NCBI RefSeq assembly: GCF_058153355.1
Contig: NZ_CM177019.1
Strand: one strand, 5' to 3'
DNA length: 64,000 bases
A program made the translations under genes and the position numbers. Of this stretch, positions 1,199 through 42,881 are shown piece after piece (within the stretch, counting starts at the first letter, position 1; every line of letters begins with the position of its first letter). Under the pieces are notes generated by a model. The model searched no databases and was not told the DNA's origin. It worked only from the letters and a program-made list of their open reading frames with translations.

Positions 1199-2151
1199 AG
1201 GCGTTTACCTATGAACGTGTGAACACCCCTGCCGAGGCGGCACTTAGCGCTCAGCGCGTACCCGGCGCAAAATTTATCGCTGGCGGGACCAATCTGCTGG
1301 ACCTGATGAAGCTGGAAATTGAAACGCCAACCCACCTTATCGATGTGAACGGGCTCGGGCTCGATAAGATTGAAGTGACCGACGCGGGTGGGCTGCGCAT
1401 CGGCGCACTGGTACGGAACACCGACCTGGCGGCTCACGAGCGCGTGCGTCGTGATTACGCGGTACTCTCCCGCGCTCTGCTCGCTGGCGCGTCTGGTCAG
1501 TTACGTAATCAGGCAACCACCGCAGGTAATCTGCTCCAGCGCACGCGCTGCCCCTATTTTTACGACACCAATCAGCCCTGCAATAAGCGCCTGCCCGGGA
1601 GCGGCTGCGCGGCACTTGAAGGCTTTAGCCGTCAGCACGCGGTGGTAGGCGTAAGCGAAGCCTGCATTGCCACCCATCCGAGCGATATGGCGGTCGCAAT
1701 GCGGTTGCTGGATGCGGTGGTGGAAACCATCACGCCGGAGGGAAAAACTCGCAGTATCACACTGGCTGATTTTTATCACCCACCGGGGAAAACGCCGCAC
1801 ATTGAAACCGCCCTGCTTCCCGGTGAGCTTATCGTTGCGGTGACGTTACCTCCGCCGCTCGGCGGAAAACATATCTACCGCAAGGTGCGCGATCGCGCCT
1901 CCTACGCCTTTGCCCTGGTATCGGTCGCGGCGATTATTCAGCCTGACGGCAGCGGGCGCGTCGCGCTGGGCGGAGTAGCACATAAGCCCTGGCGCATTGA
2001 GGCTGCGGATGCTCAGCTATCCCAGGGGGCGCAGGCCGTGTATGACGCGCTGTTCGCCAGCGCCCATCCCACCGCTGAAAATACCTTTAAACTCCTGTTG
2101 GCGAAGCGAACGCTTGCCTCCGTACTGGCTGAAGCGAGGGCACAGGCATGA
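1195..2151 (+). CDS. paoB: Aldehyde oxidoreductase FAD-binding subunit
   Basis: 318 aa; FAD-binding molybdopterin dehydrogenase pattern ([13 protein letters not shown]); start overlaps paoA stop by 4 nt. Confidence 0.9.
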
Positions 2152-4346: not shown

Positions 4347-4355
4347 GGAGGAACA

Positions 4356-5312
4356 ATGTCATACTCGCTTTTTGACAAAGACGAGCACTGGCATAAGCCA
4401 GAGCAGGCGTTTCTCACCGATGACCATCGGACCATTCTGCGCTTCGCCGTAGAGGCGCTAATGTCCGGTAAAGGAGCGGTGCTGGTGACGCTGGTGGAGA
4501 TACGCGGCGGCGCGGCGCGCCCGCTCGGAGCACAGATGGTGGTGCGCGAAGATGGTCGTTACTGCGGTTTTGTCTCTGGCGGCTGCGTGGAGGCCGCTGC
4601 CGCTTTTGAAGCGCTGGAGGTGATGGGCTCAGGCTGCGATCGCGAAATTCGCTATGGCGAAGGTTCGCCGTGGTTTGACATCGTTCTGCCCTGCGGCGGT
4701 GGGATCACGCTGACGCTCCATAAACTACGCTCGGCACAGCCTCTGCTCGCCGTGCTGAACCGCCTGGAACAGAGAAAACCGGCGGGTCTGCGCTACGATC
4801 CGCAAGCTCAATCGCTGGTGTGCCTGCCCACGCAAACCCGAACGGGCTGGAATCTCAATGGCTTTGAGGTGGGGTTCAGGCCATGCGTCAGGCTGATGAT
4901 TTACGGACGTTCTCTTGAGGCGCAGGCAACCGCGAGTCTTGCAGCAGCCACAGGCTATGACAGCCATATCTTCGATCTTTTTCCGGCCTCAGCCAGCGCT
5001 CAGATCGATACCGATACGGCGGTCATTTTGCTGTGCCATGATCTCAACCGGGAGCTGCCAGTGTTGCAGGCCGCGCGAGAGGCAAAACCCTTTTATCTCG
5101 GCGCATTGGGCAGCTATCGAACCCACACGTTACGTCTGCAAAAGCTCCACGAGCTAGGATGGTCCAGGGAGGAGACAGCGCAAATCCGGGCACCCATCGG
5201 GATATTCCCCAAAGCCCGGGATGCGCATACTCTGGCACTCTCTGTGCTGGCAGAAGTCGCTTCTGTACGTCTCCATCAGGAGGAGGATTCATGCCTGCCC
5301 CCGTCGTCGTGA
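4356..5312 (+). CDS. paoD: XdhC-like molybdenum cofactor insertion chaperone
   Basis: 318 aa XdhC/CoxI-like protein immediately after paoC; operon context. Confidence 0.85.
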   Translation: MSYSLFDKDEHWHKPEQAFLTDDHRTILRFAVEALMSGKGAVLVTLVEIRGGAARPLGAQMVVREDGRYCGFVSGGCVEAAAAFEALEVMGSGCDREIRYGEGSPWFDIVLPCGGGITLTLHKLRSAQPLLAVLNRLEQRKPAGLRYDPQAQSLVCLPTQTRTGWNLNGFEVGFRPCVRLMIYGRSLEAQATASLAAATGYDSHIFDLFPASASAQIDTDTAVILLCHDLNRELPVLQAAREAKPFYLGALGSYRTHTLRLQKLHELGWSREETAQIRAPIGIFPKARDAHTLALSVLAEVASVRLHQEEDSCLPPSS

Positions 5313-5371
5313 TCCTTGCGGCCGGGCGTGGAGAGCGCTTTCTCGCCTCCGGGGGAAATACCATAAATTAA
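5291..5371 (+). pseudogene. Truncated remnant of a MocA-like molybdenum-cofactor cytidylyltransferase gene (26 codons then stop)
   Basis: Strong RBS AGGAGGAGGA then ATG; peptide MPAPVVVILAAGRGERF matches the NTP-transferase P-loop-like N-terminus (ILAAGxGxR) but terminates after 26 aa. Confidence 0.35.
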
Positions 5372-5413
5372 GAGAAAAATCTGCAGTAGCCGTTTTAGAA
5401 AATCACCTAAATC

Positions 5414-5447
5414 GTTTAAAAGAGCGCCCAACCCATAGTGGGCGCTC
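5414..5447 (-). terminator. Rho-independent terminator downstream of the MFS transporter gene
   Basis: GC-rich inverted repeat GAGCGCCCA..TGGGCGCTC followed by T-run on the minus strand just 3-prime of the 5491 stop. Confidence 0.4.
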
Positions 5448-5490
5448 ATCGCCTTGTGTAACTTATTCAGCAACGCGCGCCCTCGCCGGA

Positions 5491-6684
5491 CTAAAGCGCA
5501 CCGGCCTTCTGGCGTGCGGTAACAAAGGTCAGTACGCCAGCGCAAAGGAGCAGCACGCTACTCATAGCAAACGTGCTCTGCCAGCCAAGGCGGTCAAACA
5601 CAATGCCTCCTGCCGTTGATCCAAGGGCGATGGCGAGCTGAATCACCGCGACCATGAGCCCGCCTCCGGCTTCGGCGTTGTCAGGCAACGTACGCGCAAT
5701 CCATGTCCACCATCCGGTTGGCGCAGCGGTGGCCAGCATGCCCCAGAGCCCTAACAGCAACGAAACCGTCCAGACCAGATGCCCGGTCAGCATCAGGCCG
5801 ATGGCAATGACGGCCATAAGTCCGGGTATGGCCATCAGCGTGGGGTAGAATTTTCTGTTGAGAAATGCCGAAACAACCAGCGTGCCAATAAAACCGGCCA
5901 CGCCGATAATCAGCAAAATCAACGACAAGCCTAAGGAATTAACCCGTGTCACCGACTCCAGAAACGGGCGCACATAGGTGAATAGCGCAAACTGCCCCAT
6001 GAAAAACAGGCCACAAGCTATCATGCCGACCACAACCATGCGGCGGCTAAATAAGCGGAATACCGTGCCAAATGACGTGTGGCTTTTATTCGCATCCATA
6101 CTGGGCAGGCTGATGCACTGCCAGATAAAGGCGACCACCGCGATGGGCACCAGGCACAAGAAAGCGCCTCGCCATCCGACCGTGGCACCCAGATAGCTTC
6201 CCAGCGGCGCGGCCACGACCGTCGCCAGCGCATTACCGGCATTGAAAATCGCCAGCGCACGCGTGACCTGTTGCTGCGGCACCAGACGAATCGCCGTTGC
6301 CGCAGACATCGACCAGAATCCGCCAATCGCCACACCAATCATCGCGCGACCGATCATATACATCAGATAACTGGAAGCCAGCGCAATAATAAGCCCCGAT
6401 ACGGCCATCAGAACCGTCATCCCCAGCAGCAGGAACTTACGATTCATCTTTCCAGCTAGCGTTGAAAGCGTCAGGCTGGTCAGAACCGCCAGCGCGCCGG
6501 AGATAGCAATCCCCTGCCCTGCCAGCCCCTCCGTCACGCCTAAATCGCGGGCAATCGGCGTGAGCAGGCTGACGGGCATAAATTCAGAAGCAATCAGCAC
6601 AAACACGCACAGGGTCATGGCAAAAATACCGCCCCAGTATGCGCGCTGATGATGAGGTGATGGTGTTTGGTTTAGCGTCGACAT
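5491..6684 (-). CDS. MFS transporter (12-TM efflux/permease type)
   Basis: 397 aa highly hydrophobic protein with MFS-like repeated TM organisation and GxxxG-rich helices. Confidence 0.85.
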   Translation of the reverse strand: MSTLNQTPSPHHQRAYWGGIFAMTLCVFVLIASEFMPVSLLTPIARDLGVTEGLAGQGIAISGALAVLTSLTLSTLAGKMNRKFLLLGMTVLMAVSGLIIALASSYLMYMIGRAMIGVAIGGFWSMSAATAIRLVPQQQVTRALAIFNAGNALATVVAAPLGSYLGATVGWRGAFLCLVPIAVVAFIWQCISLPSMDANKSHTSFGTVFRLFSRRMVVVGMIACGLFFMGQFALFTYVRPFLESVTRVNSLGLSLILLIIGVAGFIGTLVVSAFLNRKFYPTLMAIPGLMAVIAIGLMLTGHLVWTVSLLLGLWGMLATAAPTGWWTWIARTLPDNAEAGGGLMVAVIQLAIALGSTAGGIVFDRLGWQSTFAMSSVLLLCAGVLTFVTARQKAGAL

Positions 6685-6759
6685 AGTGAAATTTCACGAA
6701 GGCCAGGATAAAAGCCACCAGCCTATGGCCGGTGGCTTTGCATCAATTCAGGAGAGGTT

Positions 6760-7896
6760 TTATTTCAGTTTGGTCTGGAAAAATTGTTCGAACTTCGCGA
6801 AAGGTATTTTTCCGGCAACGTTATCGTACAGATCCACGTGATTTGCCCCAGGAACCACTACCAGCTCTTTGTCTTTACTGCCGACCGCCTTATAAGCATC
6901 TTCAGCAAAATAGCGTGAATGCGCTTTCTCACCGGTCACGATAAGCGTCGGAATGGTGATTTCACTGGCGTAGCTGAGCAGCGGCATATTCATAAACGAC
7001 AGCGGCATCGTTGCCGTCCACGCCCCGGTCGAGTTCACGGATCGTGCATGAAAACCACGCGGCATACGATAGTAATCGAAGAACTCTTTCAGTACCGGAT
7101 GCGGATTTGCCGGCAGCGTTTCTGGCAGAATACGCTCGCCCGCACTGACCTTGCCGTTGCTGTCGACATTAATATCATGACCACCGTGAGCGAACGTTCC
7201 GCTCTGCGCATCCTTCCAGCGCTGTTCATTCAGATATTGCAGAACAGCACGACGGTCGGCGGTAGAATAACGGTCTTTGCCATCCCCCACACCATGGCCC
7301 ATCGCCCGGCTCATGTCATACATCACGCTGGTAGCTACCGCTTTAACGCGGGTATCCATCGCCGCGTCGTTCAGCGCCATGCCGCCCCAGCCACAAATAC
7401 CGAGCAGCCCGATACGGTTGCGATCTACCTCTTTTTGCAGCCCTAAGAAATCCACCGCCGCGCTGAAATCTTCAGTGTTGATATCCGGTGAGGCGACGTT
7501 TCGCGGATAGCCGCCGCTTTCCCCGGTGTAAGAAGGATCGAACGCCAGGGTAACAAACCCTCGTTCCGCCAGCGTCTGCGCATACAAGCCGCTGGATTGC
7601 TCTTTCACCGCGCCAAATGGCCCACTGACCGCAATCGCCGCCAGCTTGCGATCGCCACGGTCTTTAGGCAGGTAAAGATCGCCCACTAAGGTGATGCCAT
7701 ATCGGTTCGGGAACGAGACTTTACGGTGATCGACTTTCTGGCTCTCGGCGAACGTTTTATCCCATTTATCTGTCATGGACACAGGGGCATTAGGATTGGT
7801 TGAATCAGCATAACTCATTGTCGTGACTCCACTTAATGATGCGAAAAGCAGCATGGTCGGCATCGCGATTTTTAGCGTTCGGGTGAAGGCTTTCAT
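6760..7896 (-). CDS. Secreted dienelactone-hydrolase-family alpha/beta hydrolase (Cys nucleophile)
   Basis: Start moved to internal ATG (MKAFTRTLKIAMPTMLLFASLSG signal peptide); GICGWGG nucleophile elbow with Cys; paralogous to 11908-13772. Confidence 0.75.
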   Translation of the reverse strand: MKAFTRTLKIAMPTMLLFASLSGVTTMSYADSTNPNAPVSMTDKWDKTFAESQKVDHRKVSFPNRYGITLVGDLYLPKDRGDRKLAAIAVSGPFGAVKEQSSGLYAQTLAERGFVTLAFDPSYTGESGGYPRNVASPDINTEDFSAAVDFLGLQKEVDRNRIGLLGICGWGGMALNDAAMDTRVKAVATSVMYDMSRAMGHGVGDGKDRYSTADRRAVLQYLNEQRWKDAQSGTFAHGGHDINVDSNGKVSAGERILPETLPANPHPVLKEFFDYYRMPRGFHARSVNSTGAWTATMPLSFMNMPLLSYASEITIPTLIVTGEKAHSRYFAEDAYKAVGSKDKELVVVPGANHVDLYDNVAGKIPFAKFEQFFQTKLK

Positions 7897-8082
7897 AAAA
7901 ATCCCCATAAAAAACAACAGAGAGATACAGGTTTCCGACGGACAACACTGCGGTGCTTTACTTTGATGGGGTCATTATAGTGAGCAGAATTAGTGCTGAT
8001 TAGGGGGCGATTAATGCTAAGATTAATACCATATTGTTATAAATTAATGCGGAGATTGCCGGCATGAAGGGGGGATGTTTCA

Positions 8083-8967
8083 ATGGCGAAAAGGGAGAAC
8101 TACAACGAGCTGTACCTGTTTATGCAGGTGGTGCGGGAAGGCAGCTTTACCGCAGCGGCTCAGCGGCTGGGTCTTGCTCAGTCAGGAGTCAGCCGTTCTG
8201 TTCGCGAGCTTGAAGAAAGGCTCGGCGTCCAGCTGCTAGTGCGCACCACGCGTAAACTGTCGCTGACGCAAGCAGGCGAGCAGCTCTACCAGAAGACGGC
8301 ATCTGGATTTGAAATGTTAGATCTTGGGCTTGCCACACTGGCGCACTATCGAGAGACGCCCTCCGGCACGGTGCGTATCAATGCCAGCCAGCACGCGATT
8401 GATAAATGCCTGCTGCCAAAGCTGGCGGTATTTAAACAGCGATATCCTGATATCCGGCTTGAACTGATAAATGAGAGCCGGTTCGTCGATATCATCGAGG
8501 AAAGATTCGATGCTGGTGTCCGCCTGGGGCCTGAAGTCGGTCAGGGTATGGTCGCGGTACGCATCACGCCCGATATGGAGATGGCAATTGTGGGGACTCC
8601 GGAACATTTTCGTCGCTATGGTTTTCCGCAAACCCCGGCGGATTTAAAGGCGCATCCCTGTATCGCCTATCAGTTTGCCGACGGCAGCGTATACCAGTGG
8701 GAACTCAATCAGGATGATAAAAAAATCACTCATCGCCCTGAAGGGCAATGGGCCCTATCCGACAGCTATATGGAAGCAGAAGCCGCACGGCTGGGCCTCG
8801 GATTGGCCTATGTTCCTGTTGAACTGGTTGCGGATGATTTAGAACACGGTAAGCTTATCAGAGTGTTGCAGCGTTACAGCCTGCGAATGGAGGGATTGTT
8901 TCTCTATTACCCTCATCGCAACGTCTCCCCCGCTCTGCGGATGGTCATTGATACATTGAAAATCTGA
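8083..8967 (+). CDS. LysR-family transcriptional regulator
   Basis: 294 aa; N-terminal LysR HTH (FMQVVREGSFTAAAQRLGLAQSGVSRSVRELEERLGVQLL) plus substrate-binding domain. Confidence 0.85.
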   Translation: MAKRENYNELYLFMQVVREGSFTAAAQRLGLAQSGVSRSVRELEERLGVQLLVRTTRKLSLTQAGEQLYQKTASGFEMLDLGLATLAHYRETPSGTVRINASQHAIDKCLLPKLAVFKQRYPDIRLELINESRFVDIIEERFDAGVRLGPEVGQGMVAVRITPDMEMAIVGTPEHFRRYGFPQTPADLKAHPCIAYQFADGSVYQWELNQDDKKITHRPEGQWALSDSYMEAEAARLGLGLAYVPVELVADDLEHGKLIRVLQRYSLRMEGLFLYYPHRNVSPALRMVIDTLKI

Positions 8968-9177
8968 ACGTTAACAACGACCGACTCTTCACTGTGCAAT
9001 ATTGTGTCAGGTAGTCATTCTGCGTTCAATTCCAGGGGCCGCTTTGAGCGAAGAGCGGACCTTCTCGCCCTGTACGTATAGAAAGCTACAAATTGATGTT
9101 TCATCTTCCAGATAGTTACAGGCAAAACGGTATATTCCAGAATTACCTGTACTCAAGTCTGATTACTTAGGTCTTAT

Positions 9178-10305
9178 TTATGTCGGAAACCATCCGGGCG
9201 TCTTCTGAATCACTTGCCATAGTTTTTCAGGGATCGCCAATTCGTCTGAGTGTTGCGACAGGATAAGCGTGTTTTTTACCTTATCCTCATGGCCTGCCTG
9301 CACCAGCTCCATCCAGTTGGGATTCATGACAATCGTCCGGCCTATGGCAACCAGTGACAGTCCGGCCTCCAGAGACTGTTGAGCCGCTTGTGATGAAGTA
9401 ATTTTTCCCGCTGCCAGCAGAGGTAAACGCCCATTCAGCTGCTCTACAAACCGTGCCAGAATCGTATCCTTACCCTCACTACTCTGCGGCCGGTCGGTCA
9501 GTACGTCGTGGAGTGAGATATGGAGATAGTCAATGAGAGACTCTTTCTCTAACTGACCAGCCAGGGCCTGGGAGTCATTAATCCGTAATCCTCCGTCTCC
9601 TGACTCTTCCGGCGATAACCGGTAACCCAATAAAAAGGGTTTTCTGGCATGAGCTTCAATAACCCGCCGGACTTCCCGAACGACCTCCAGCGGGAAACGC
9701 ATACGGTTTGCTAATGAACCCCCCCATTCGTCAGTACGCAGGTTAAACCAGGGGGAGAAGAAGTTCTGGATAAGAAAACCATGCGCACCGTGCAATTCAA
9801 CACCATCAAAACCGGCCTCAATTGCGCGGCGAGTGGCTTCGCCGAAGTCATGGATCACACCAGAAATTTCGTCATGGTCCAAAGCCCGGCAGGCTTGTTC
9901 GCCACGATTAAAAGGGCCAGCCGGAGCGGCCAGGGCACTGGCGCTGACGATCTCCCCACCAGGGATGAGTTCGGGAACCGCTTTATTACCGGCATGAAAC
10001 AGTTGCAGAATTGCCAGCGCCCCCCCGCTTTTTGCTACATCAGCCAGTTTCCTCAGACTCGGGATAAAACGATCATCGTAGGCTGCGAATTCATTGGTGA
10101 AACCCACACCGTTTCTCTGAACATGAGCGCATCCCGTTATCACTAATCCCACACCGGTAGCGCGCGCCCGATAATAGTTTACTTCTTCATCTGAAATAGT
10201 TTCATCGTCATTAGCGGACCAGGTGGTCATCGGTGCCATAACGACGCGGTTACGCATCCTGAGACCATTTTTAAACGTGAAGGCCTGGGTTAATAAGTCA
10301 GTCAT
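9178..10305 (-). CDS. NADH:flavin oxidoreductase, Old Yellow Enzyme family
   Basis: 375 aa; OYE-like FMN-binding TIM barrel pattern (VMAPMTTW, LQLFHAG, GFDGVELHGAHGFL). Confidence 0.85.
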   Translation of the reverse strand: MTDLLTQAFTFKNGLRMRNRVVMAPMTTWSANDDETISDEEVNYYRARATGVGLVITGCAHVQRNGVGFTNEFAAYDDRFIPSLRKLADVAKSGGALAILQLFHAGNKAVPELIPGGEIVSASALAAPAGPFNRGEQACRALDHDEISGVIHDFGEATRRAIEAGFDGVELHGAHGFLIQNFFSPWFNLRTDEWGGSLANRMRFPLEVVREVRRVIEAHARKPFLLGYRLSPEESGDGGLRINDSQALAGQLEKESLIDYLHISLHDVLTDRPQSSEGKDTILARFVEQLNGRLPLLAAGKITSSQAAQQSLEAGLSLVAIGRTIVMNPNWMELVQAGHEDKVKNTLILSQHSDELAIPEKLWQVIQKTPGWFPT

Positions 10306-10344
10306 TGTACTCTCGATATTTAAAGCATCGGGTGCTTACACCCA

Positions 10345-11178
10345 TTAATCAAAATCGGTGGTATTACTCAGCGCAGCAAATTCGCGTATCTCTTTAATAC
10401 GGGCTTCCAGTGAAGGCATTACAAAACTGATAGCGTCATTTCCTATTAGGAGCTGTCGAGGTGGGTTCTTCATTTCAACCACCTGACAAACTACCAGTGC
10501 AAGTTTGGCAGGGTCCCCTTGCTGTTGACCATCTGCGGATGCCAGCAGCTCACGCACATCGCCATAATCGGCATAGTCCTCAATCTTTTTTTCGCCATAG
10601 TGTGCCGAACTATTACTGAGAAACTCTGTGCGGAAAAAACCGGGCTCAATCGCGGTGACATAAATACCAAGCGGGGCAACTTCATCGGCAAGTGCAAGCG
10701 TCATACCTTCAACGGCAAATTTCGATGCAGAATAGAATGTAGCGTTTGCGACCGCTTTAACACCCGCGATCGAGGACGTATTAATAATGCGTCCGCTACG
10801 CTGCTGGCGCATGACCGGTAAGACTGCGCGCAGCACATTGGCCATGCCGAACACGTTAGTGGCAAACTGCAGTTCTATTTGTTCAGCGGTTGCCTCTTCA
10901 AAACGCCCCAGCAGGCAGAATCCTGCGTTGTTAACCAGAACATCAATACGTCCGAAACGGCGAATAGCGGCATCCACGGCAACCCTGGCCTGCTGTTCAT
11001 CACGGACATCAAGCTCCAGCAGCTCAATATTTTCTTCAGAGGCCGTGCTGAATGTCCTGCGTAAGTTGTCCATATTACGCCCCGTTGCTACAACACGATC
11101 GCCCTGTTGCAAAGCGGCATTCACTATATCGGTCCCCATGCCGCGGGCAGCCCCGGTTACAAACCAAATACGACTCAT
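10345..11178 (-). CDS. Short-chain dehydrogenase/reductase (SDR)
   Basis: 277 aa; TGAARGMG cofactor-binding motif, NNAG, YSASK catalytic motif. Confidence 0.85.
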   Translation of the reverse strand: MSRIWFVTGAARGMGTDIVNAALQQGDRVVATGRNMDNLRRTFSTASEENIELLELDVRDEQQARVAVDAAIRRFGRIDVLVNNAGFCLLGRFEEATAEQIELQFATNVFGMANVLRAVLPVMRQQRSGRIINTSSIAGVKAVANATFYSASKFAVEGMTLALADEVAPLGIYVTAIEPGFFRTEFLSNSSAHYGEKKIEDYADYGDVRELLASADGQQQGDPAKLALVVCQVVEMKNPPRQLLIGNDAISFVMPSLEARIKEIREFAALSNTTDFD

Positions 11179-11250
11179 CTCAGTTCCCCCTGATAAGTTT
11201 ACTAACCCGTACTGCGATAAGGTCTGTACGGGTTTAATGGCATTTTTGAT

Positions 11251-11901
11251 TTACATAAAGTACGGCTTGTCGCCGTCGGTACCGGGCTGATTAACACCGA
11301 TATTTTCACCAATATGTTTTTCAGGTTTATCAATCATATCGGCGATTAATGCGGCGACGCTTTTGCGGGATACAACCGTGCCTTTGAACGGCTCATTGCG
11401 GGTAGTGAGTTCATAATCAATCGTATCTTCATCGGTCAGCCAGGCCGGACGCAGGATGGTGTAATCCAGCCCGGAGGCTTCAATCGCATCAGCCGCGCGG
11501 CGGAATGGCCTGAGCGGTTCGCCAATAATGGCGTTATTCCACTCGCCGAATTTTCCCGGGACTTCATCATAAATACCGAGCGAAAGGACGAAAATCAGAC
11601 GTCTTACGCCAGCGGCTTTCATCGCTGCAATCACCGCCTTCGCCTGAAGATCTAAATCCTCCCCGGTCAGATTGGCGTAAACCACATCCTGACCCACCAT
11701 GGCCTGTTCCAGTGCCGCATGGTTTAGCACATCGCCCATGATAATCCGGCTATTGGCCGGATGTGGTTTGTGTATTTTGACCGGCTGACGGGCAAATAAT
11801 GTCTGTGTGACGCCAGGTTTATCCGCCAGTTGATCGATAACATGGCGGGCAATCTGCCCGCTGGCACCAAGCACCAGGACTTTTTGAATGATGTTTTTCA
11901 C
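11251..11901 (-). CDS. NAD(P)H-binding (NmrA/atypical SDR-like) oxidoreductase
   Basis: 216 aa; N-terminal VLVLGASGQIARHV Rossmann motif. Confidence 0.7.
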   Translation of the reverse strand: MKNIIQKVLVLGASGQIARHVIDQLADKPGVTQTLFARQPVKIHKPHPANSRIIMGDVLNHAALEQAMVGQDVVYANLTGEDLDLQAKAVIAAMKAAGVRRLIFVLSLGIYDEVPGKFGEWNNAIIGEPLRPFRRAADAIEASGLDYTILRPAWLTDEDTIDYELTTRNEPFKGTVVSRKSVAALIADMIDKPEKHIGENIGVNQPGTDGDKPYFM

Positions 11902-11907
11902 AGGGCA

Positions 11908-12840
11908 TTACTCCAGGTGTGCGGCAAAGAACGGAAGCACTTTTGACATCGCTTCACGAACCGCTTCTGGATTGTCATACAGTTCGTAATGCGAATAATC
12001 GGCTAATGAGACCAGCTGACGGTCACGGGAAACTGCAGCCCGTCCATAGATTTCCAGACCATCACGGTAAGCTCCGAAAGCGCCCACTTTTTCGCCGACC
12101 ACCACCATCACCGGCTGAGTCAGCAATACTTCGGCAAAAGCAAAGGCATCCCAGGCCAGCGTTTTCTGCGCATGAGAGAACACCATTCGCGTTGCCCCGC
12201 CTGGCTGCTGGCCACGTGGCGTTTTGTAGTAGTCTGTTGCCTCAAATACGTCACGCTCAGTCAGTCCACTGGCCTTTGCCATTTCCGGGCTGGCGGGGAA
12301 CAGTTCATTAACCTGAACCTCTCCCCCGCGGGCTTCATTCGTACGCTGCGCCGCCATCGCACTCAGTGCACCAATAGGGTCGTAATTGCTGAAACCTTCG
12401 CGGAAAAGCCGGCCGATATTTACGCCGGTGATACTCACCACGGCTTTAATACGTTTCTCCGTCAGTGTGGCATTAATGGCATAACCACCGCCGCCGCAAA
12501 TACCCAGAACGCCAATCCGTTCAGCATCGACATACGGCAGAGTTACGGCGTAATCAATAACGCGACTGATATCTTCCACGCGCTGAGTCGGATCCTCCAC
12601 CCAGCGCGGGGAGCCGCCGGATTCCCCCTGGAAACTGGCGTCATAGGCGATCACAACATAGCCTGCTTCAGCCAGCGCTTTTCCGTAGACATTGCCGGAT
12701 GTCTGTTCCTTACAGCTGCCAAAAGGGTGGACGCTGATAATTGTCGGATACTGTTTTGTTTCATCAAACGCCGGTGGAAACTGAACGCTGGCAGCAATGT
12801 GCCAGGCCATATCGGCATTCTGAATTTGAACATGTTTCAT
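11908..12840 (-). CDS. Dienelactone hydrolase family protein (cytoplasmic paralog 1)
   Basis: 310 aa; GICGGGG Cys nucleophile elbow; start ATG overlaps stop of upstream paralog. Confidence 0.8.
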   Translation of the reverse strand: MKHVQIQNADMAWHIAASVQFPPAFDETKQYPTIISVHPFGSCKEQTSGNVYGKALAEAGYVVIAYDASFQGESGGSPRWVEDPTQRVEDISRVIDYAVTLPYVDAERIGVLGICGGGGYAINATLTEKRIKAVVSITGVNIGRLFREGFSNYDPIGALSAMAAQRTNEARGGEVQVNELFPASPEMAKASGLTERDVFEATDYYKTPRGQQPGGATRMVFSHAQKTLAWDAFAFAEVLLTQPVMVVVGEKVGAFGAYRDGLEIYGRAAVSRDRQLVSLADYSHYELYDNPEAVREAMSKVLPFFAAHLE

Positions 12841-13772
12841 TACAGTGTCTCCTCGAAGAATGGGGCTAATACGGAAACTGCTTCCGCGACGTATGCTTTA
12901 CCGTCATACAAGTCCATATGGTTGGCACCTTCAACAATGTGGTACCGCTTATCCTGGCTTGAGGCGCGATCGTACAGATCGTCGCTCATCCATTTACTTC
13001 CCGCCGCGCTACCCGCAACAATTTGCAGCGGCTGGGTCAGGTAAACCTCCGCCATTTGGTAAGCGTCATAGGTAATGATCTGATTGAGGCTTCGCAGCGT
13101 GGCGTATCCGGGGGCCGTCGGATACTGTGCCCGTGGCGTGTGGTAATACTCCCAGGCCTGACGCAACTCTTCATTTGGAGCATCAGACTCCTTCATGGGA
13201 GCCAGCGGCATGGTGGCATATTCACTGCCGCTGATATCGGTACTACGGGCATTTGAACCGGCTACAACATACGGCAGTGCATCAATGGATTTCACATTGT
13301 TTTCCCAGCCATTACGGAACATCGAGCCGATATTAACGGCACTGACCGTTCCGATGGCCTTGATGCGACGATCCTGAATCGCGGCATTGGCGGTATAGCC
13401 TGCACCGGCGCAAATTCCCATCGCGCCAATTTTCGCGCTGTCGACATAAGGCAGTGTGGTCAGGTAATCAATCACCGCACTGACATCTTCGGTACGGATG
13501 TACGGGTTTTCCAGCTGGCGCGGCTCTCCGCCACTTTCGCCCTGATAAGACGCATCATAAGCCACTGTCACAAACCCTTTTTCTGCCAGCTTTTCGGCAT
13601 AGGTTCCGGCAGTTTGTTCCTTAACGCCACCTCCCGGATGAGAGACCACAATAGCCGGGTACTTGAGGCTTTCATCAAATGCGGGTGGGAAGTAAAGCAC
13701 GGCGGACAAAGAGATTGTCGGGATATTGCTGTTGGTGAAACTGATTTTCTGGTTCATCATCCGGTTCCTCAT
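12840..13772 (-). CDS. Dienelactone hydrolase family protein (cytoplasmic paralog 2)
   Basis: 310 aa; GICAGAG Cys nucleophile elbow; tandem with 11908-12840. Confidence 0.8.
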   Translation of the reverse strand: MRNRMMNQKISFTNSNIPTISLSAVLYFPPAFDESLKYPAIVVSHPGGGVKEQTAGTYAEKLAEKGFVTVAYDASYQGESGGEPRQLENPYIRTEDVSAVIDYLTTLPYVDSAKIGAMGICAGAGYTANAAIQDRRIKAIGTVSAVNIGSMFRNGWENNVKSIDALPYVVAGSNARSTDISGSEYATMPLAPMKESDAPNEELRQAWEYYHTPRAQYPTAPGYATLRSLNQIITYDAYQMAEVYLTQPLQIVAGSAAGSKWMSDDLYDRASSQDKRYHIVEGANHMDLYDGKAYVAEAVSVLAPFFEETL

Positions 13773-13898
13773 TGGGCTGTCGGTTATCTGTCACGCTTGA
13801 TGGGATAACTATAGCCATTGATTATTAAGATGATTAGACCCAAAATAATGATTGGACTTATCATTTAAATGATTAATACATCGGGTGGGGACGCAGAA

Positions 13899-14798
13899 AT
13901 GAAACGCGATGAGATAGCAGATCTGATGGCATTCGTGGCCGTCGCTGAAGAGCGTAGTTTCACCCGGGCTGCCGCCCGTCTTGGTATGGCGCAGTCAGCG
14001 TTAAGCCAGATAGTGCGCCGTACAGAAGAGCGCCTGAATCTGCGGCTTCTGACGCGTACTACACGCAGCGTTGTTCCCACAGAAGCGGGTGAACACCTCT
14101 TGTCTGTTCTTGGCCCAATGCTGCATGACCTGGATTCCGCGCTGACTTCCCTGGGCGATCTTCGCGATCGCCCGTCCGGCACCATACGCATTACCACAGT
14201 GGAACATGCCGCAAAGACCATATTGCTTCCCGCCATGCGTACGCTGTTGAAATCCCATCCTGAAATTGATGTGCAGATCTTCATCGATTATGGCCTTACT
14301 GATGTCGTCTCAGAGCGCTTTGATGCCAGGGTTCGCCTGGGGGGAGAAATGGATAAGGATATGATTGCTGTTCGAATCGGGCCCGATATCCCGATGGCAA
14401 TTGTGGGTGCGCCGGAGTATCTCTCGCGAAGAGGTACCCCTGTGTCTGTGGCGCACCTGGTCGATCATCAGGCTATTAACCTGTACCTTCCTTCATCGGG
14501 CACCGCAAATCGCTGGAGATTAGTGCGCGGAGGGCGCGAAGTCAGGGTTCGCATGGAAGGACAACTTCTATTAAATACGATAGACCTGATCCTCGATGCC
14601 GCTATTGACGGGCACGGCCTCGCGTATCTGCCTTATGATCAGGTTCAGCAGGCTATTGTAGAAAAAAAACTGATCCGCGTTCTGGAGAAATTTACGCCAG
14701 ACTTACCAGGATATCACCTGTACTACCCACACCGCCGCCATGCGGGTTCGGCATTCTCTCTGTTAATTGATGTGCTGAAGTATAAAGGGGATGTTTAA
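13899..14798 (+). CDS. LysR-family transcriptional regulator
   Basis: Start moved to ATG at 13899 (MKRDEIADLMAFVAV..) with GGGG RBS; LysR HTH and effector domain; divergent from hydrolase operon. Confidence 0.85.
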   Translation: MKRDEIADLMAFVAVAEERSFTRAAARLGMAQSALSQIVRRTEERLNLRLLTRTTRSVVPTEAGEHLLSVLGPMLHDLDSALTSLGDLRDRPSGTIRITTVEHAAKTILLPAMRTLLKSHPEIDVQIFIDYGLTDVVSERFDARVRLGGEMDKDMIAVRIGPDIPMAIVGAPEYLSRRGTPVSVAHLVDHQAINLYLPSSGTANRWRLVRGGREVRVRMEGQLLLNTIDLILDAAIDGHGLAYLPYDQVQQAIVEKKLIRVLEKFTPDLPGYHLYYPHRRHAGSAFSLLIDVLKYKGDV

Positions 14799-14951
14799 CT
14801 ATTCTTTTTGATGGTGATTCCAGTCGTTCAGAGAGTACTAATACACCTTTGTGCAACGTCCGCTCCTGGCACAAAGCTGACCATCACCCTCCCTCCAAAT
14901 TAATGAACACATCTAATAAACCCTAGCTAATTACCCTATCTAATTGAATAA

Positions 14952-16867
<1,916 letters not shown>

Positions 16868-16891
16868 TACCCGGACGGGTCTACGGACCCG

Positions 16892-17824
<933 letters not shown>

Positions 17825-17933
17825 TCATGAAGGGTGTTCATAGACACAATCATTTTAGCCCCATTACTGACAATAATGATAATTGATATTCTGGTTGTAT
17901 CGAAAATAAGTCTGAATTATCAGAAGGTTTATC

Positions 17934-18707
17934 ATGAAAATACTCGTTGCAGGGGCGACAGGAAGCATTGGCCTTCATGTCGTGAATACCGCAATTAAAA
18001 TGGGCCATCAGCCCGTCGCGCTGGTCAGAAATAAACGCAAAGTAAAATTGCTTCCTCGTGAAACAGATGTTTTTTACGGCGATATTTCAATGCCGGAAAC
18101 ACTCACCGAATTACCGAAAGATATTGATGCCATCATCTTCACGCTCGGTTCTGATGTCCAGGGGCGTATTGGTGCCAGAGCGATCGATTACGGAGGAGTA
18201 CGTAATATTTTGCGAATATTCAAGGATACACCTGTCCATATCGCCCTGATGACCACGATTGGCGTGACTGAACGACTCAGCACCTGGAATCAACGTACTG
18301 AGGTTCATGACTGGAAAAGACGTGCCGAGCGTCTGGTCAGGGCAAGTGGTCATCCCTATACCATCGTCAGGCCCGGCTGGTTTGATTACAACAATGATAA
18401 TGAGCACAGAATCGTTATGCTTCAGGGAGACAGGCGTCATGCAGGAACACCGGAAGATGGTGTGATATCCCGGGGTCAAATCGCCCAGGTTCTGGTCAAT
18501 GCCCTGACCAACGATGAGGCAAAAAATAAAACGTTCGAGCTAGTGGCTGAGCGAGGCGAAGCACAGCAGGATCTTACCCCACTGTTTGCAGACCTGAAGA
18601 CTGATGATCCACAGAAAAATGATGGGGTTTTGGACATCGACAATATGTCTCTGCGTGAAGAACCTGAGTGCATTATCAAAGAGCTGAACCTGTATTCAAA
18701 AAATTAA
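17934..18707 (+). CDS. NAD(P)H-binding oxidoreductase (NmrA-like)
   Basis: 257 aa; MKILVAGATGSIGLHVV Rossmann motif. Confidence 0.75.
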   Translation: MKILVAGATGSIGLHVVNTAIKMGHQPVALVRNKRKVKLLPRETDVFYGDISMPETLTELPKDIDAIIFTLGSDVQGRIGARAIDYGGVRNILRIFKDTPVHIALMTTIGVTERLSTWNQRTEVHDWKRRAERLVRASGHPYTIVRPGWFDYNNDNEHRIVMLQGDRRHAGTPEDGVISRGQIAQVLVNALTNDEAKNKTFELVAERGEAQQDLTPLFADLKTDDPQKNDGVLDIDNMSLREEPECIIKELNLYSKN

Positions 18708-18848
18708 ACAATCTACAACCCTGACAATTTTGTCATATAGCAGTCAGCCTCATGACAGCTTAAGTCTGTATATTTGAATGTACAGAGGGGGATAGTTCCC
18801 CTGATACGAGCCCAGTTTCAAACACAAATTTTAAAAAAGGTATTAGAT

Positions 18849-19100
18849 ATGAAATCACTACTTATTACTTCATTGGTCATGGGATTTATTACAGTGAATA
18901 CCGCATCTGCCGCTCAGGAAATTAACCATGCAGATGGGAAAGAAAAGATCGGTGTAATATCAGCCAGCAATGCCTATACGCTTGATGATTTATCGAATGC
19001 GCTCTCTCGTAAGGCTGATGAGCAAGGAGCAACGTCGTTCAAAATTCTGTCAACCACGGGGAATAACCGGTTACACGGGGTTGCTGAAATATATAAGTAA
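18849..19100 (+). CDS. DUF1471 (YdgH/BhsA/McbA-family) small periplasmic stress protein
   Basis: Start moved to MKSLLITSLVMGFITVNTASA signal peptide; C-terminal GATSFKILSTTGNNRLHGVAEIYK matches the BhsA-type domain. Confidence 0.6.
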   Translation: MKSLLITSLVMGFITVNTASAAQEINHADGKEKIGVISASNAYTLDDLSNALSRKADEQGATSFKILSTTGNNRLHGVAEIYK

Positions 19101-19156
19101 ATCATTAGCATCCTGAGCAGGATGTGTCTCAGCCCTCTTATAGCGAGCGTCGTTCT

Positions 19157-19498
19157 ATGTTTAGAACAGAAGACATCATCGACGAGATAACTCAATGGAT
19201 TGATTCAAACTTACATAAACCGATGAAGATAGAGGATGTTGCTGCGCGGGCAGGATACTCCAAGTGGCATCTTCAGCGGATTTTTGTACAGGTAAAAGAA
19301 GTTAGTCTTGGGAAGTACATAAGAGATACGAAACTTAGACTAGCAGCAAAAGATCTTATCGAGACTAATGAGCCAGTGATGGTTATCGCCTTTAAATATG
19401 GATTCGATTCACAACAAACTTTTACTCGGGTTTTCTCTAAAAAATATAAATTGCCACCATTGAAATATAGAAACGCGGAAAAGAGAAAAAAACATTAA
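19157..19498 (+). CDS. AraC-family regulator of the MarA/SoxS/RamA type
   Basis: Start moved to ATG 19157; ~113 aa two-HTH protein (AARAGYSKWHLQRIF ... FKYGFDSQQTFTRVF). Confidence 0.7.
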   Translation: MFRTEDIIDEITQWIDSNLHKPMKIEDVAARAGYSKWHLQRIFVQVKEVSLGKYIRDTKLRLAAKDLIETNEPVMVIAFKYGFDSQQTFTRVFSKKYKLPPLKYRNAEKRKKH

Positions 19499-19878
19499 CA
19501 GTTCAAAGTTATCACCCTTACGTAACATAACCAGAATAATAATATATTCCAGCATCAAAAGTTGACGTTTTTTTGGTCTGGAAGCTTCTTGTTCGGAACA
19601 AAGCTCTGCCTGGTTTTTAACATACAATGTCTAGACCATGACCTTCAGCCATTACACATCAGCCAAAATATCGAACAGAACCAGATCGATATCCAATCAT
19701 TTCCCCCTCGTGGCAAGCCATTAACTTTTAGATATGTTATTTACTCTTGCAGTCGATTCATGGCACTCAGCAGACAAGCTACCTGAGATGAAGATCAGCT
19801 GCGAGTAAGGAGAAGACATAGACAGGAGGATGCTGATAATATTTCCCCATTGGATTACCGTTTCCAACAGGGGTATGA

Positions 19879-20436
19879 ATGGAATACCAAACTTCATTGC
19901 AGAAAATATTGTCAGATGACCCTGTGAGAATGAAGATTCTCTATGCAGTCCAAGCACTGGAACTCAATGATAGCTGGATTGGGGCGGGATTCGTACGGAA
20001 CGCTGTTTGGGATCACTTTCATGAATATGGGCTAAGCCCTGTTTCTGGTGATGTCGATGTTGTCTGGTTTGACTGCGAATACTGTAACCCAGACCATGAT
20101 CGTTACCTTGAAGACACGCTTAGGCAACAACTACCTTCGTTTGACTGGTCGGTGAAGAATCAAGCCAGAATGCATCAACGTAATGGTGATTCTCCCTATA
20201 CGTCAACGACAAATGCTTTACTGCACTGGCCTGAAACAGCTACGGCTGTAGCTGTCAGATTGGGTAAGAACGGTCTCGATATCACTGCGCCTTATGGACT
20301 TTCTGACTTATTTGAACTGCGTTTACGACCAACTCCTGCATTTGAACGTGAAAAGTTGGGTACTTTTAAACAACGGGTCACTACGAAGCAATGGTTGGAA
20401 CGTTATCCCAGGTTACAACTCACCGTTTCCTTATAA
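19879..20436 (+). CDS. Nucleotidyltransferase-family protein (DUF925-like)
   Basis: 185 aa; GAGFVRNAVWD ... GDVDVVWFD pattern typical of minimal Pol-beta-fold nucleotidyltransferases; assignment from memory. Confidence 0.5.
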   Translation: MEYQTSLQKILSDDPVRMKILYAVQALELNDSWIGAGFVRNAVWDHFHEYGLSPVSGDVDVVWFDCEYCNPDHDRYLEDTLRQQLPSFDWSVKNQARMHQRNGDSPYTSTTNALLHWPETATAVAVRLGKNGLDITAPYGLSDLFELRLRPTPAFEREKLGTFKQRVTTKQWLERYPRLQLTVSL

Positions 20437-20629
20437 TCTAGATATACAAATATCCCGGTTCTTGCGGTTCGATTGTCTGATTGACCGTTCGCACCAGACA
20501 TGAAGTGTACGGACTGACTGGCTGAGCAGTAGGTTTGCTATGAGCGTGGAGCAGACGTTAGTCTGAATACTCGATGATATACTTCACCACAGAAATATCC
20601 ATTTTATAAGAACCGATACTTTAATTACT

Positions 20630-20989
20630 TCATAAATCAGCACATTCTAGATTTCCAAGTTTCTGAATTACAGAATCTGGATTCGCACAGGCATACTCCA
20701 TGACACTTAACCAAACGATTTTTTGTTTCGGGAATCCGTTGTGGTAAAACTGATACCTCAGGCCGGGGGCACAGATGAGAAGAGCAGGATCTCGTGCCAT
20801 CAACATCTCAATGTCCGATTCAGTATCGTCAGCAAGAACACTCCAATCTAGCTGTAAACTATTCAGCTCACTTTGAAGAGCCTGAATGTATTTCTCAGTT
20901 AGAGAATATGGGAAATAGCCTCTAAGCAATGGCGAACGGCCTAGTGTAGGGCTGGGGCTATGGATAAAGTAAACGACCTTATTTGTCAT
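20630..20989 (-). CDS. Hypothetical protein, possible degenerate PTS EIIB (lactose/cellobiose type)-like fold
   Basis: 119 aa with perfect AAGGAG RBS; weak resemblance to ChbB-type EIIB but lacks the active-site Cys. Confidence 0.3.
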   Translation of the reverse strand: MTNKVVYFIHSPSPTLGRSPLLRGYFPYSLTEKYIQALQSELNSLQLDWSVLADDTESDIEMLMARDPALLICAPGLRYQFYHNGFPKQKIVWLSVMEYACANPDSVIQKLGNLECADL

Positions 20990-21292
20990 TGTTCTCCTTG
21001 TTTATGTTTATACAGCTATTAGTTGGTAACGAACTAACGGTTTGCCTCTACTTTCAGTGCTTTGGCGAACAATATTATATCTCATGTAAAAAGTATAACT
21101 TTTAGCCAATTGATATGCCAACGTCCACTCCTGGCACTAAGCAGGCTGTCAGACGAAAGTGTAACGTTTCAAAAGTAAGCGTAAATGCAAATCAGTACAA
21201 AAAAAATTACTGTGGTTGAACTCCTCCAGAACGGAGGAGCTAAGCTTTAGATTTCACGCTACCTACTGATAAGAACCAATTTAAGGTTCGTA

Positions 21293-22488
21293 TCATAAGG
21301 CCATGATTACTTTATATTTTCCAATGTTATCAATATAATCCGCATACCACTGCATCATCTCCCTACGTCCTTCCAAATACAACGCATGGTTATACGTCCC
21401 ACGAATCGCATTCTTATCAACGTGAGCCAGCTGGGTTTCAATCCACGCTGTATTGAACCCTTCCTCATGCAAAATCGTACTCATCGTGTGGCGGAAACCA
21501 TGCCCCGTGACCCTCCCCGTGTATCCAATCCGCTTAAACACCTGATTAATACTCGCTTCGCTCATTGTTTTGCGAGGGTCATTCCTCCCAGGAAACACTA
21601 GGGGATACTGTCCAGACATCACTTTGAGTTGCTGTACGATTTCCAGCGCTTGGGTAGAGAGGGGCACCAGATGAGACCGTTTCATCTTCATACGCTCTGC
21701 AGGTATTTCCCACACCGCTTTTTCAAGATCAAACTCACTCCAGAAAGCACCTCGAAGCTCGCCGGTGCGAACTCCCGTAAGGATCAGCAGCCGAGCGGCA
21801 AGAACAACTAGCGGGCTTCCTGTATAGCTGGATAGGGCTTTAAAGAAGTCTGGTAACTCTTCAACAGTCAGGAAGGGATATGTTTCGATTCATGCCCTGA
21901 CATCGCGCTGGTTATATCCGCGGCAGGATTGTATTCCGCACGACCAGTAACTATGGCGTAACGAAAGACTTCGCTGCAGCGCTGGCGAACCTTTTTGGCC
22001 TTCTCTGTCGCGCCACGGCTTTCCATTCGACGTAGCACATTAAGCAGAACCAGCGGTTTGATTTCATTCACCGGCAGTTGACCGATATAGGGGAAAATAT
22101 CTTTATTAAAGGCCTCCAGAATGTCAGAAGCATACCCTTCTGACCACCGGCTCACCTTCGTACCGTGCCATTCAAGCGCCACAGCCTGAAACGTATTATT
22201 GAGTTGCACATCGCGAACCAGCTTTTCTTCTTTCTTGGCGAAAGACGGATCGATGCCCTCGGCCAGCTTTTTCTTGGCTTCATCGCGTAGTGCCCTCGCT
22301 TGTACAAGGGACACTGCTGGATAGACACTAAAAGCCATACGCTTCTCTTTTCCATAGAAGCGATACTTCATCCGCCAGTATCTGGAACCAGGGGGAACAA
22401 CCTCAAGATACAAACCAGCACCATCCGCCAGCTTATAGGCTTTCTCTCTGGGTTTAGCAGCGTCTACCTGTCGTGCATTAAGCTTCAT
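21293..22488 (-). pseudogene. P4-type tyrosine integrase, disrupted (N-terminal and catalytic parts in different frames)
   Basis: N-terminal ORF 21868-22488 (DUF4102/SAM-like arm-binding) and C-terminal ORF 21293-21715 (HGFRHT, LAH, Y catalytic residues) separated by a frame break; adjacent to tRNA-Thr 3-prime end. Confidence 0.7.
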
Positions 22489-22650
22489 TGGGGCATCTCC
22501 CTGGACCGAACATAGAATCCCCCCACTAATGCCCCCAACTGCAACTTGATTTCGGTTGAGTCCAGTTGATAACAGGAGACAAGATACGAGCCAGAAACCA
22601 CAGTGTACGGGCTTTTAGTTGATTTCGGTAGACTTGGGAAGAGTTTGAAA

Positions 22651-22726
22651 TGGTGCCGATAATAGGAGTCGAACCTACGACCTTCGCATTACGAATGCGC
22701 TGCTCTACCAACTGAGCTATATCGGC
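22651..22726 (-). tRNA. thrW: tRNA-Thr (anticodon CGU)
   Basis: 76-nt cloverleaf GCCGATATAGCTCAGTTGGTAGAGCAGCGCATTCGTAATGCGAAGGTCGTAGGTTCGACTCCTATTATCGGCACCA read on minus strand; CCA end faces integrase. Confidence 0.9.

Positions 22727-41372: not shown

Positions 41373-42881
<1,509 letters not shown>

Follow-up and report, generated by a model that had tools for sequence, protein, structure and literature searches.

What fills the interval between the paoABCD genes and the tRNA gene thrW in the 64,000-nucleotide stretch of contig NZ_CM177019.1 (RefSeq assembly GCF_058153355.1) analysed here, hereafter the window, and how did this DNA come to be assembled and fixed there? The order in the window is paoABCD, a variable region, thrW, then proA and proB, and thrW is a documented integration hot spot (PMC7545054). 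A preliminary description had assigned the whole interval 5291-22726 to a thrW-associated variable region with a degraded integrase and a set of redox and detoxification genes. The analysis presented below indicates that the region is probably what remains of an island with a P4-type integrase, inserted at the thrW hot spot and since immobilised, in a rare, apparently clonal lineage of Escherichia coli, with cargo slotted in at two kinds of short sites designated T1 and T2 (Table 1).

The extent of the acquired DNA was examined by comparison with 5,426 complete E. coli genomes, the set used throughout. The 3.6-kb segment 5400-9040, with the genes for a major facilitator superfamily (MFS) transporter, a hydrolase and a LysR regulator, was present at 96.7-98.4% identity in 912 of them. 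In the three flank-bearing strains examined, these genes adjoined paoD whatever thrW carried: they were followed in EcPF15 by a ykgR fragment, a LysR fragment and thrW, in EC42405 by a ykgR fragment, a hypothetical gene, a short-chain dehydrogenase/reductase (SDR) gene, a LysR gene and thrW with no integrase, and in Z0117EC0005 by AbiE, other genes and an integrase fragment. The first three genes of the interval are therefore a common accessory flank. Homology of the window to the same three strains ended at 9051-9060 and restarted at 22645, which is six bases away from the thrW 3′ end (22651), so that the acquired, lineage-specific DNA is about 9064-22644. The island spans this segment and not 5291-22726; the flank genes are found with or without an integrase, which the preliminary description itself had named as a mark of DNA that is not an island. 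Its variable region at thrW holds for most of the interval, which is rare and is found whole in 0 of the 5,426 genomes, but not for the common part 5491-8967. The content differs, as described, from that of K-12, where CP4-6 sits between thrW and yagP-paoD, and blastn found only pao, thrW and proA to be shared. The chromosomal DNA that adjoins thrW in island-free strains (the ykgR fragment, hypothetical gene, SDR and LysR genes, as in EC42405) was missing from the window.

Starting at thrW, the parts of the island follow in this order: the integrase module, a cassette of one gene, an AT-rich stretch, and then modules B and A. The GC content was 0.59 in the pao genes, 0.54 in the flank, 0.52 in module A, 0.48 in module B, 0.42 in the tail (19499-21118) and 0.48 in the integrase segment, with values of 0.41-0.44 across about 18.5-21.5 kb. 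The AT-rich stretch that had been placed in the 2 kb next to the integrase thus exists, but it lies on the cargo side of the integrase segment.

The integrase gene was confirmed to be a frameshifted member of the P4 type (PRK09692) beside the 3′ end of the tRNA gene. Its two open reading frame (ORF) fragments, 21868-22488 and 21293-21715, matched positions 8-213 and 267-401 of PRK09692 (1e-39 and 1e-42). Alignment to the intact thrW integrase of E. coli R18 (89.5% nucleotide identity) revealed a 1-nt deletion, a T missing between 21881 and 21880, as the sole lesion; repaired, the gene encodes a 398-aa ORF very similar to the R18 protein. The frameshift is real because the sequence is identical in two independent NCBI assemblies. 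Related integrases at 89-91% nucleotide identity occurred in about 300 genomes, and in R18 the gene adjoins thrW and accompanies BREX cargo. Neither a 25-mer nor a 16-mer of the tRNA 3′ end, with up to three mismatches allowed, matched anything in the 64-kb window except the tRNA itself, and a repeat search of the window returned nothing but a chance match within the OYE gene (19 nt, 84%). The same blastn comparison showed, as a positive control, the 54-nt, 98% thrW repeat at the far end of CP4-6 in K-12. Hence, of the features expected of an island at this site, insertion at the thrW 3′ end and a P4-family integrase adjoining the tRNA were found and a far-boundary repeat was not, in agreement with the preliminary description.

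An island that is still mobile, through ribosomal or transcriptional slippage in the integrase gene or an integrase supplied in trans by a related island and acting on a diverged attR, would be compatible with a single-base lesion in a TT-to-T context within an otherwise intact ORF and with the abundance of related intact integrases in E. coli. We give this explanation hardly any credence in view of the absent tRNA 3′-end repeat, for which CP4-6 provides the contrast, the missing chromosomal DNA expected beyond attR, and a frameshift that is fixed in independent assemblies.

The arrangement is rare. Exact-protein look-ups recovered it in four public draft assemblies, GCA_043012465.1, GCA_015332025.1 and two derived from the Sequence Read Archive (SRA), with 100% identity except for a single gapped difference at one locus, and an identical copy of the 119-aa protein of the one-gene cassette is labelled Escherichia coli in NCBI. 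The flanks of the window were 97-98.6% identical to E. coli. The distribution of the island is sporadic and its ancestry foreign: its parts were at most 92% identical to any copy, all of these at other loci. Module A (9064-14851) was found at 92.2% identity in one E. coli genome, strain C8, near ldtA-cobT beside defence-like genes; elsewhere in E. coli it has only the ymjC-ycjY-pgrR paralogue (about 80%). In a scan of one genome per species its best relatives (about 92%) were in a Citrobacter sp., a Pseudocitrobacter metagenome-assembled genome and Shimwellia, and its hydrolase-hydrolase-LysR core reached Serratia and many alpha- and betaproteobacteria at 66-76% identity. Module B (14885-19498) was present at 91-92% identity and coverage of at least 80% in 8 genomes, at varied loci and in one case on a plasmid; one copy is part of an island at tRNA-Gly in FDAARGOS_1373 whose integrase is intact. 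A module B paralogue (about 87%) stands beside fdeC in about 2,200 genomes, in a cluster that adds a second LysR gene, a hydrolase, an OYE and ykgR. No match to 19461-21148 was found in the complete E. coli genomes, and homologues of the 119-aa protein (45-77% identity) came from Pantoea, Rouxiella, Mangrovibacter and similar bacteria. The scan of one genome per species found no donor with modules A, B and the tail contiguous; nearest was Serratia sp. PL17, in which the hydrolase pair, LysR, the first aldo-keto reductase (AKR) and the second LysR are adjacent at 81-84%.

The cargo thus consists of paralogues of resident E. coli loci, a relation that the preliminary description had not noticed. 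That the interval is ancestral chromosome lost by most E. coli would fit this likeness of theme, the occurrence of the left three genes in 17% of genomes and the GC content of modules A and B (0.48-0.52), which is near the E. coli average. It is nevertheless very improbable. The segment 9064-22644 is found as a unit in none of the complete genomes, the E. coli copies of its parts reach only 91-92% identity as against 97-98.6% in the flanks, those copies sit at other loci or on a plasmid, the integrase adjoins the tRNA, and the AT-rich part has relatives only outside Escherichia.

The boundaries within the island led to the T sites, which the preliminary description had likewise not noticed. 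A 33-nt imperfect repeat at 14854-14886 and 21119-21151 is placed where homology changes partner. T1 and T2 (22-24 nt) share the arms TCCGCT...AGCGGA and differ in a 10-nt centre; the consensus is TCCGCT-CCTGGCACAA-AGCGGAC for T1 and GGTCCGCT-nTGAGCGArG-AGCGGA for T2. Apart from the sites listed in Table 1 (window-only E-values of 2.6e-11 to 1.4e-3), the 64-kb window held no significant match to either profile. The left crossover lies inside the T2 at 9039, at AGCGGAC, with the common E. coli flank to its left and a module A of the strain C8 type to its right. Matches of module A relatives to the window extend to 14881-14888, and those of module B relatives begin at 14855. Homology to the R18 integrase module begins at GTCAGAC (21148), just 3′ of the T1 at 21119, and strain ET490 carries a full T1-like copy at the corresponding position. 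Module A is accordingly a T2...T1 cassette, at 5.8 kb the largest seen, and the 119-aa ORF forms a second one, with one gene between the T2 at 20530 and the T1 at 21119. In Enterobacteriaceae bacterium RIT697 a homologue of the 119-aa protein (65% identical) is likewise flanked by T2 and T1, with the relative orientation unchanged. A natural swap is seen in FDAARGOS_1373: its left flank corresponds to that of the window (95%) and module B is again the right neighbour (92%), but the slot between T2 and T1 holds a hypothetical gene and the Gabija genes GajA/GajB. Its tRNA-Gly island (locus L001, 26794-30115) also holds GapS4a/GapS4b genes together with the intact integrase, and upstream in it lie genes for a nitroreductase, flavodoxins and a member of the carboxymuconolactone decarboxylase family.

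Cargo delimited by T sites was also found in hot spots of P2-like phages, in a lambdoid prophage, in tRNA islands and on the chromosomes of Citrobacter, Serratia and Shimwellia. An exact search of IMG/VR with 18 specified motif bases returned 45 contigs with unrelated flanks, and it was from these that the two related site types emerged. For a tally of site order we took all fetched loci, with duplicates removed, and T-site matches at E < 0.01. On the same strand, T2 was followed by 0.63-5.8 kb of cargo and T1 in 27 distinct cassettes, T1 was followed by T2 within 9-10 nt (19 nt in one case) in 8 composites, and no T1 followed by a distant T2 occurred among the fetched loci. The reversed-sequence control gave 0 matches as against 140 real ones in 1.67 Mb. 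The T1-T2 composite was present in 1,029 of the 5,426 E. coli genomes (19%), at one to three places in each, and was never annotated. Four small ORFs (69-155 aa) of Enterobacteriaceae bacterium RIT697 (locus L112, 2700-5110) are set apart by densely packed T1 and T2 sites that face either way; the arrangement recalls the cassette array of an integron, with no integrase seen beside it.

Arrays of the form T2-gene-T1·T2-gene-T1 were seen in two P2-like phages or prophages, where they occupy the space between the genes for the tail sheath and for tail-fibre assembly. In phage P2 itself, two minus-strand sites enclose fun(Z): a T2 (17429-17450, E = 2.4e-4) and one resembling T1 (15335-15360). The latter, GTCCACT-CTGTGCCAAA-AGCGGAC, is weak in the hidden Markov model (HMM) search (E = 1.3) and was recognised by eye. 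To judge from their sequences, the sites in the window are evidently the same elements as the repeats flanking fun(Z) in P2. These flanking repeats and the inserts at the G/FI locus of P2-like coliphages were reportedly treated by Nilsson, Karlsson and Haggard-Ljungquist in 2004. The passage on fun in a review (PMC8987985) puts forward, as an inference, that the repeats flanking it enable site-specific exchange. A literature search for the motif string found nothing.

Several other identities were considered for the sites. The junction motif is, as we take it, loosely like tRNA acceptor/T-arm sequence; a decayed tRNA end was rejected in view of the wrong orientation for an att repeat. Repetitive extragenic palindromic (REP) or enterobacterial repetitive intergenic consensus (ERIC) elements were rejected as well, given that copy 2 yielded 3 weak matches in the 5,426 genomes and the composite occurs one to three times per genome. 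A structured RNA was dismissed with no Rfam match even at E = 5 and no stem covariation. The region was not taken for an integron, as the family searches of its ORFs found a P4-type integrase only (no IntI).

A more serious alternative holds that T1 and T2 are incidental, being conserved terminator-type or regulatory hairpins where transcription units end; the mosaic would then be the product of ordinary recombination, homologous or illegitimate, between paralogous redox loci and the backbones of islands, and no dedicated site-specific step would be involved. In its favour, T1 and T2 both form imperfect inverted repeats in intergenic DNA, no recombinase is consistently nearby, and the 80-87% chromosomal paralogues of the cargo could seed recombination. 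The centres of the sites are, however, more conserved than the stems, with TGGCAC and TGAGCGA invariant, and T1 position 28 varies opposite a nearly invariant partner. The sites are not followed by a T-run, the cargo genes may have either orientation relative to them, and neither the strict T2...T1 order nor the fixed 9-10-nt spacing of the composites is expected of terminators. The boundaries between otherwise unrelated backbones are also sharp. Incidental hairpins therefore appear unlikely to us, if well short of negligible.

We thus regard an island remodelled at T sites as the probable history of the region. A P4-type-integrase island would have inserted at thrW, and its cargo region would then have been reworked by exchange at T sites. 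If a single replacement had spanned the DNA between the T2 of the chromosome (9039) and the T1 beside the integrase (21119), attR and the ancestral neighbours would have been lost in one step, which would explain the missing boundary repeat. The element would no longer be able to excise, being fixed in place because the integrase is frameshifted and both attR and the ancestral neighbours are gone.

A number of observations weigh against this history. We know of no recombinase that acts on T sites, and no recombinase for them was found in the window. Recombination through short homology would be served equally well by the conserved 23-nt block, which might also be a regulatory element or a terminator that closes transcription units. 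The loci behind the order rule were gathered by the exact T1 pattern, which favours T1 in the sampling. At 20530 the T2 match is weak, and it creates a T1 followed by a distant T2 (14852 to 20530), so that module B must be read as backbone and not as a cassette. Finally, the T2 in the common flank of island-free strains is degenerate (E 0.02-0.3).

As for how the exchange might work, we tentatively propose, as a possibility with a minor chance of being right, that T1 and T2, with their common arms and their differing, overlap-like centres of 10 nt, are heterospecific core sites of a trans-acting recombinase, T1 pairing only with T1 and T2 only with T2. If so, any T2-cargo-T1 unit could be swapped without excision, as a natural counterpart of recombinase-mediated cassette exchange, and single defence genes, Gabija and six-gene metabolic modules would move in this manner among P2-like phages, lambdoid prophages, tRNA islands and enterobacterial chromosomes. 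The same exchange would also account for the loss of attR here.

A possible candidate for the enzyme is a 200-aa Xer/integron-like tyrosine recombinase comprising a catalytic domain only (WP_001305361 family). Its gene was found in several loci no more than about 2 kb from T sites, and it is present in 863 of the E. coli genomes. Its best NCBIfam matches were XerA/integron-integrase and XerC, all far below the cut-off. It accompanied only 5 of about 50 loci and was rejected as an obligatory neighbour of T sites; tblastn for this small Xer-like recombinase found nothing in the window.

Table 1. Features of the thrW interval and of related loci. Positions refer to the window unless another locus is named.
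Feature	Position	Strand	Remarks
paoABCD	509-5312	+	paoD ends at 5312
Conserved flank (MFS transporter, hydrolase, LysR)	5491-8967	mixed	not island
MFS transporter	5491-6684	-	flank
Alpha/beta hydrolase, secreted type	6760-7917	-	flank; DLH/Peptidase_S15 Pfam
LysR regulator	8083-8967	+	flank
T2 site	9039-9063	+	GGCCGCT-TTGAGCGAAG-AGCGGAC; nhmmer E = 1e-4; left junction of acquired DNA
Module A, six-gene cassette	9178-14798	mixed	bounded by T2 9039 and T1 14852
OYE flavin oxidoreductase	9178-10305	-	module A
SDR	10345-11178	-	module A
NmrA-like protein	11251-11901	-	module A; NmrA/NAD_binding_10
YcjY-like hydrolase	11908-12840	-	module A
YcjY-like hydrolase	12840-13772	-	module A
PgrR-like LysR, divergent	13869-14798	+	module A
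T1 site	14852-14884	+	TCCGCT-CCTGGCACAA-AGCTGAC; nhmmer E = 2.6e-11; module A/B junction
Module B, six genes	14958-19498	mixed	family searches
DkgA-like AKR	14958-15851	+	module B
AKR13-like AKR	15878-16867	+	module B
LysR regulator	16892-17824	-	module B
NmrA-like protein	17934-18707	+	module B; NmrA/NAD_binding_10
DUF1471/BhsA-like protein	18774-19100	+	module B; new relative to the preliminary description
RamA/SoxS-like small AraC regulator, two helix-turn-helix motifs	19124-19498	+	module B
PF06042 nucleotidyltransferase-family protein	19879-20436	+	Pfam; AT-rich stretch; new relative to the preliminary description
Probable second T2 site	20530-20560	+	GGTTTGCT-ATGAGCGTGG-AGCAGAC; nhmmer E = 1.4e-3
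Conserved hypothetical protein, 119 aa	20630-20989	-	one-gene T2-cargo-T1 cassette; new relative to the preliminary description
T1 site	21119-21144	+	nhmmer E = 3.3e-5; cargo/integrase module junction
P4-type (PRK09692) tyrosine integrase pseudogene	21293-22488	-	premature stop at 21868
thrW, tRNA-Thr(CGT)	22651-22726	-	attachment site; right boundary of island
200-aa tyrosine recombinase	11128-11730		locus L106 (E. coli ABU 83972)
200-aa tyrosine recombinase	4419-5021		locus L108
200-aa tyrosine recombinase	5396-5995		locus L060

Family searches of the ORFs recovered all gene families that had been named for the interval, and added the proteins marked as new in Table 1. The three hydrolases are paralogues (32-41% identical in pairs) and the three LysR proteins are 41-46% identical to each other. 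With Pfam matches of the DLH/Peptidase_S15 kind, PF01738 among them, and Cys nucleophile elbows GICGGGG and GICAGAG (G-I-C-G/A-x-G), read from their sequences, the hydrolases are assigned to the dienelactone-hydrolase-type alpha/beta hydrolases of the YcjY group; the product of 12840-13772 matched E. coli YcjY (PDB 5xb6, deposited as 'uncharacterized protein') at E = 1.6e-188. The relatives of the OYE-like protein were generic, namely NADH:flavin oxidoreductases and chromate, pentaerythritol tetranitrate (PETN) and N-ethylmaleimide (NEM) reductases. In this protein (9178-10305) a Trp was observed in the context NLRTDEWGGS. It replaces what we take to be the proton-donor Tyr of YqjM-type enzymes (RTDEYGGS), and with Trp at this place the protein may not be a classical ene-reductase. 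The second AKR matched AKR13-type enzymes (perakine reductase, IolS, YhdN), and the NmrA-like proteins matched only atypical SDRs. RamA was the best match of the AraC-type regulator, ahead of Rob, SoxS and MarA, at an NCBIfam equivalog score of 156.4 bits against a cut-off of 180; the protein is classed by sequence as a small regulator of the MarA/SoxS/Rob/RamA type and not demonstrably as RamA.

An anti-phage defence island was also considered, and ruled against by zero PADLOC matches among the six cargo proteins tested. A defence or phage role was rejected for the 119-aa ORF, with no PADLOC, PHROG or Pfam match, and for the nucleotidyltransferase, with no PADLOC or PHROG match. The nucleotidyltransferase also had no NCBIfam match, and megablast found no counterpart of it among the complete E. 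coli genomes.

The theme suggested earlier for the cargo, that it handles quinones, electrophiles or lactones, is compatible with the families found. Each LysR protein would control the neighbouring NAD(P)H- or flavin-dependent reductases and Cys-nucleophile dienelactone-hydrolase-type esterases; the predicted enzymes would reduce or hydrolyse reactive carbonyls, activated alkenes, quinones, esters or lactones, and an input from stress responses would come through the RamA/SoxS-like regulator together with the BhsA-like protein. A detoxification role is suggested with low certainty. It is read from family membership only, the closest relatives are generic or uncharacterised, and the regulator of the K-12 paralogue, PgrR, has been linked to peptidoglycan recycling and not to detoxification (PMC5934670).

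Two observations concern ykgR. In E. coli 4/1-1 (locus L006, 8044-14927) the fdeC-ykgR cluster, found in many E. coli, reads AKR, AKR, LysR, LysR, hydrolase, OYE, ykgR, and in island-free strains a ykgR fragment follows the paoD-side flank (loci L002-L004, about 5700-5770). The shared ykgR and redox theme hints at an old duplication or exchange between the fdeC-ykgR and paoD-side loci.

Other features were noted farther along the window. A pair of intact genes for prfH (release factor H) and an RNA ligase of the rtcB family, both pseudogenes in R18, lies at 31446-33196 on the minus strand. A seemingly intact lateral-flagella (Flag-2) cluster follows dinB at 35089-64000 and includes LafU, MotA, FliD-like, FlgK and FliI genes; K-12 presumably retains only remnants of it. 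The Rfam family naRNA4 (CssrE, a nucleoid-associated REP-derived RNA) matched the plus strand at 41376-41453 and 41581-41658, with 79.9 and 87.9 bits, above the gathering threshold.

As an object the island is of a familiar type, a routine case of turnover at a hot spot in which only the combination of cargo is new, and the architecture of its cassette sites is the interesting part. Repeats known from P2, at fun(Z), are seen here to delimit metabolic modules of several genes, as well as a Gabija system, at a tRNA hot spot in the chromosome, and their two types keep a strict order. How cargo at phage and island hot spots can be exchanged with such speed and precision is, according to Rousset et al. 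(2022; PMC9122126, Discussion), unknown. With two defined sites of 22-24 nt and examples of natural swaps, such exchange becomes directly testable.

The closest known counterparts at this site are PAI III536/PAI-536-thrW, the thrW island of avian pathogenic E. coli (APEC) and the BREX island of R18. They share with the present island the location (the 3′ end of thrW, beside proA), a tRNA-adjoining integrase, in R18 of the same family as here, variable cargo and a sporadic spread. They differ in their virulence or defence cargo, which is metabolic and regulatory here, and in the present island the integrase is frameshifted and the far repeat and ancestral neighbouring DNA are missing. CP4-6 of K-12 occupies the same thrW-to-pao interval, yet it shares no sequence with the island except the tRNA; it keeps its attR repeat, which the island lacks, and its IntF, which lies at the pao end and not beside thrW, is only 23% identical to the repaired integrase over 147 residues.

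For the cargo, the ymjC-ycjY-pgrR locus and the fdeC-adjacent AKR-AKR-LysR-LysR-hydrolase-OYE cluster present the same families in the same local order. Relative to these resident loci, the cargo consists of extra, diverged copies elsewhere, and module A adds the OYE and SDR genes that are absent from the K-12 ycjY locus.

For the sites, pdif modules of Acinetobacter plasmids and integron cassettes likewise place cargo between short conserved recombination-type sites, form arrays and move between unrelated backbones. The T sites are, in our understanding, unlike attC core sequences, show no dif similarity either and do not have the XerCD-type 11-6-11 architecture. One site type serves in pdif modules and integrons, whereas two types in direct orientation serve here, and the window holds no IntI or attI. 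The G/FI locus of P2-like phages carries the same two site types in the same order as the window; where those of P2 enclose fun(Z) in a phage, those described here bound a 5.8-kb, six-gene metabolic module and lie in a tRNA island and chromosomal flank.

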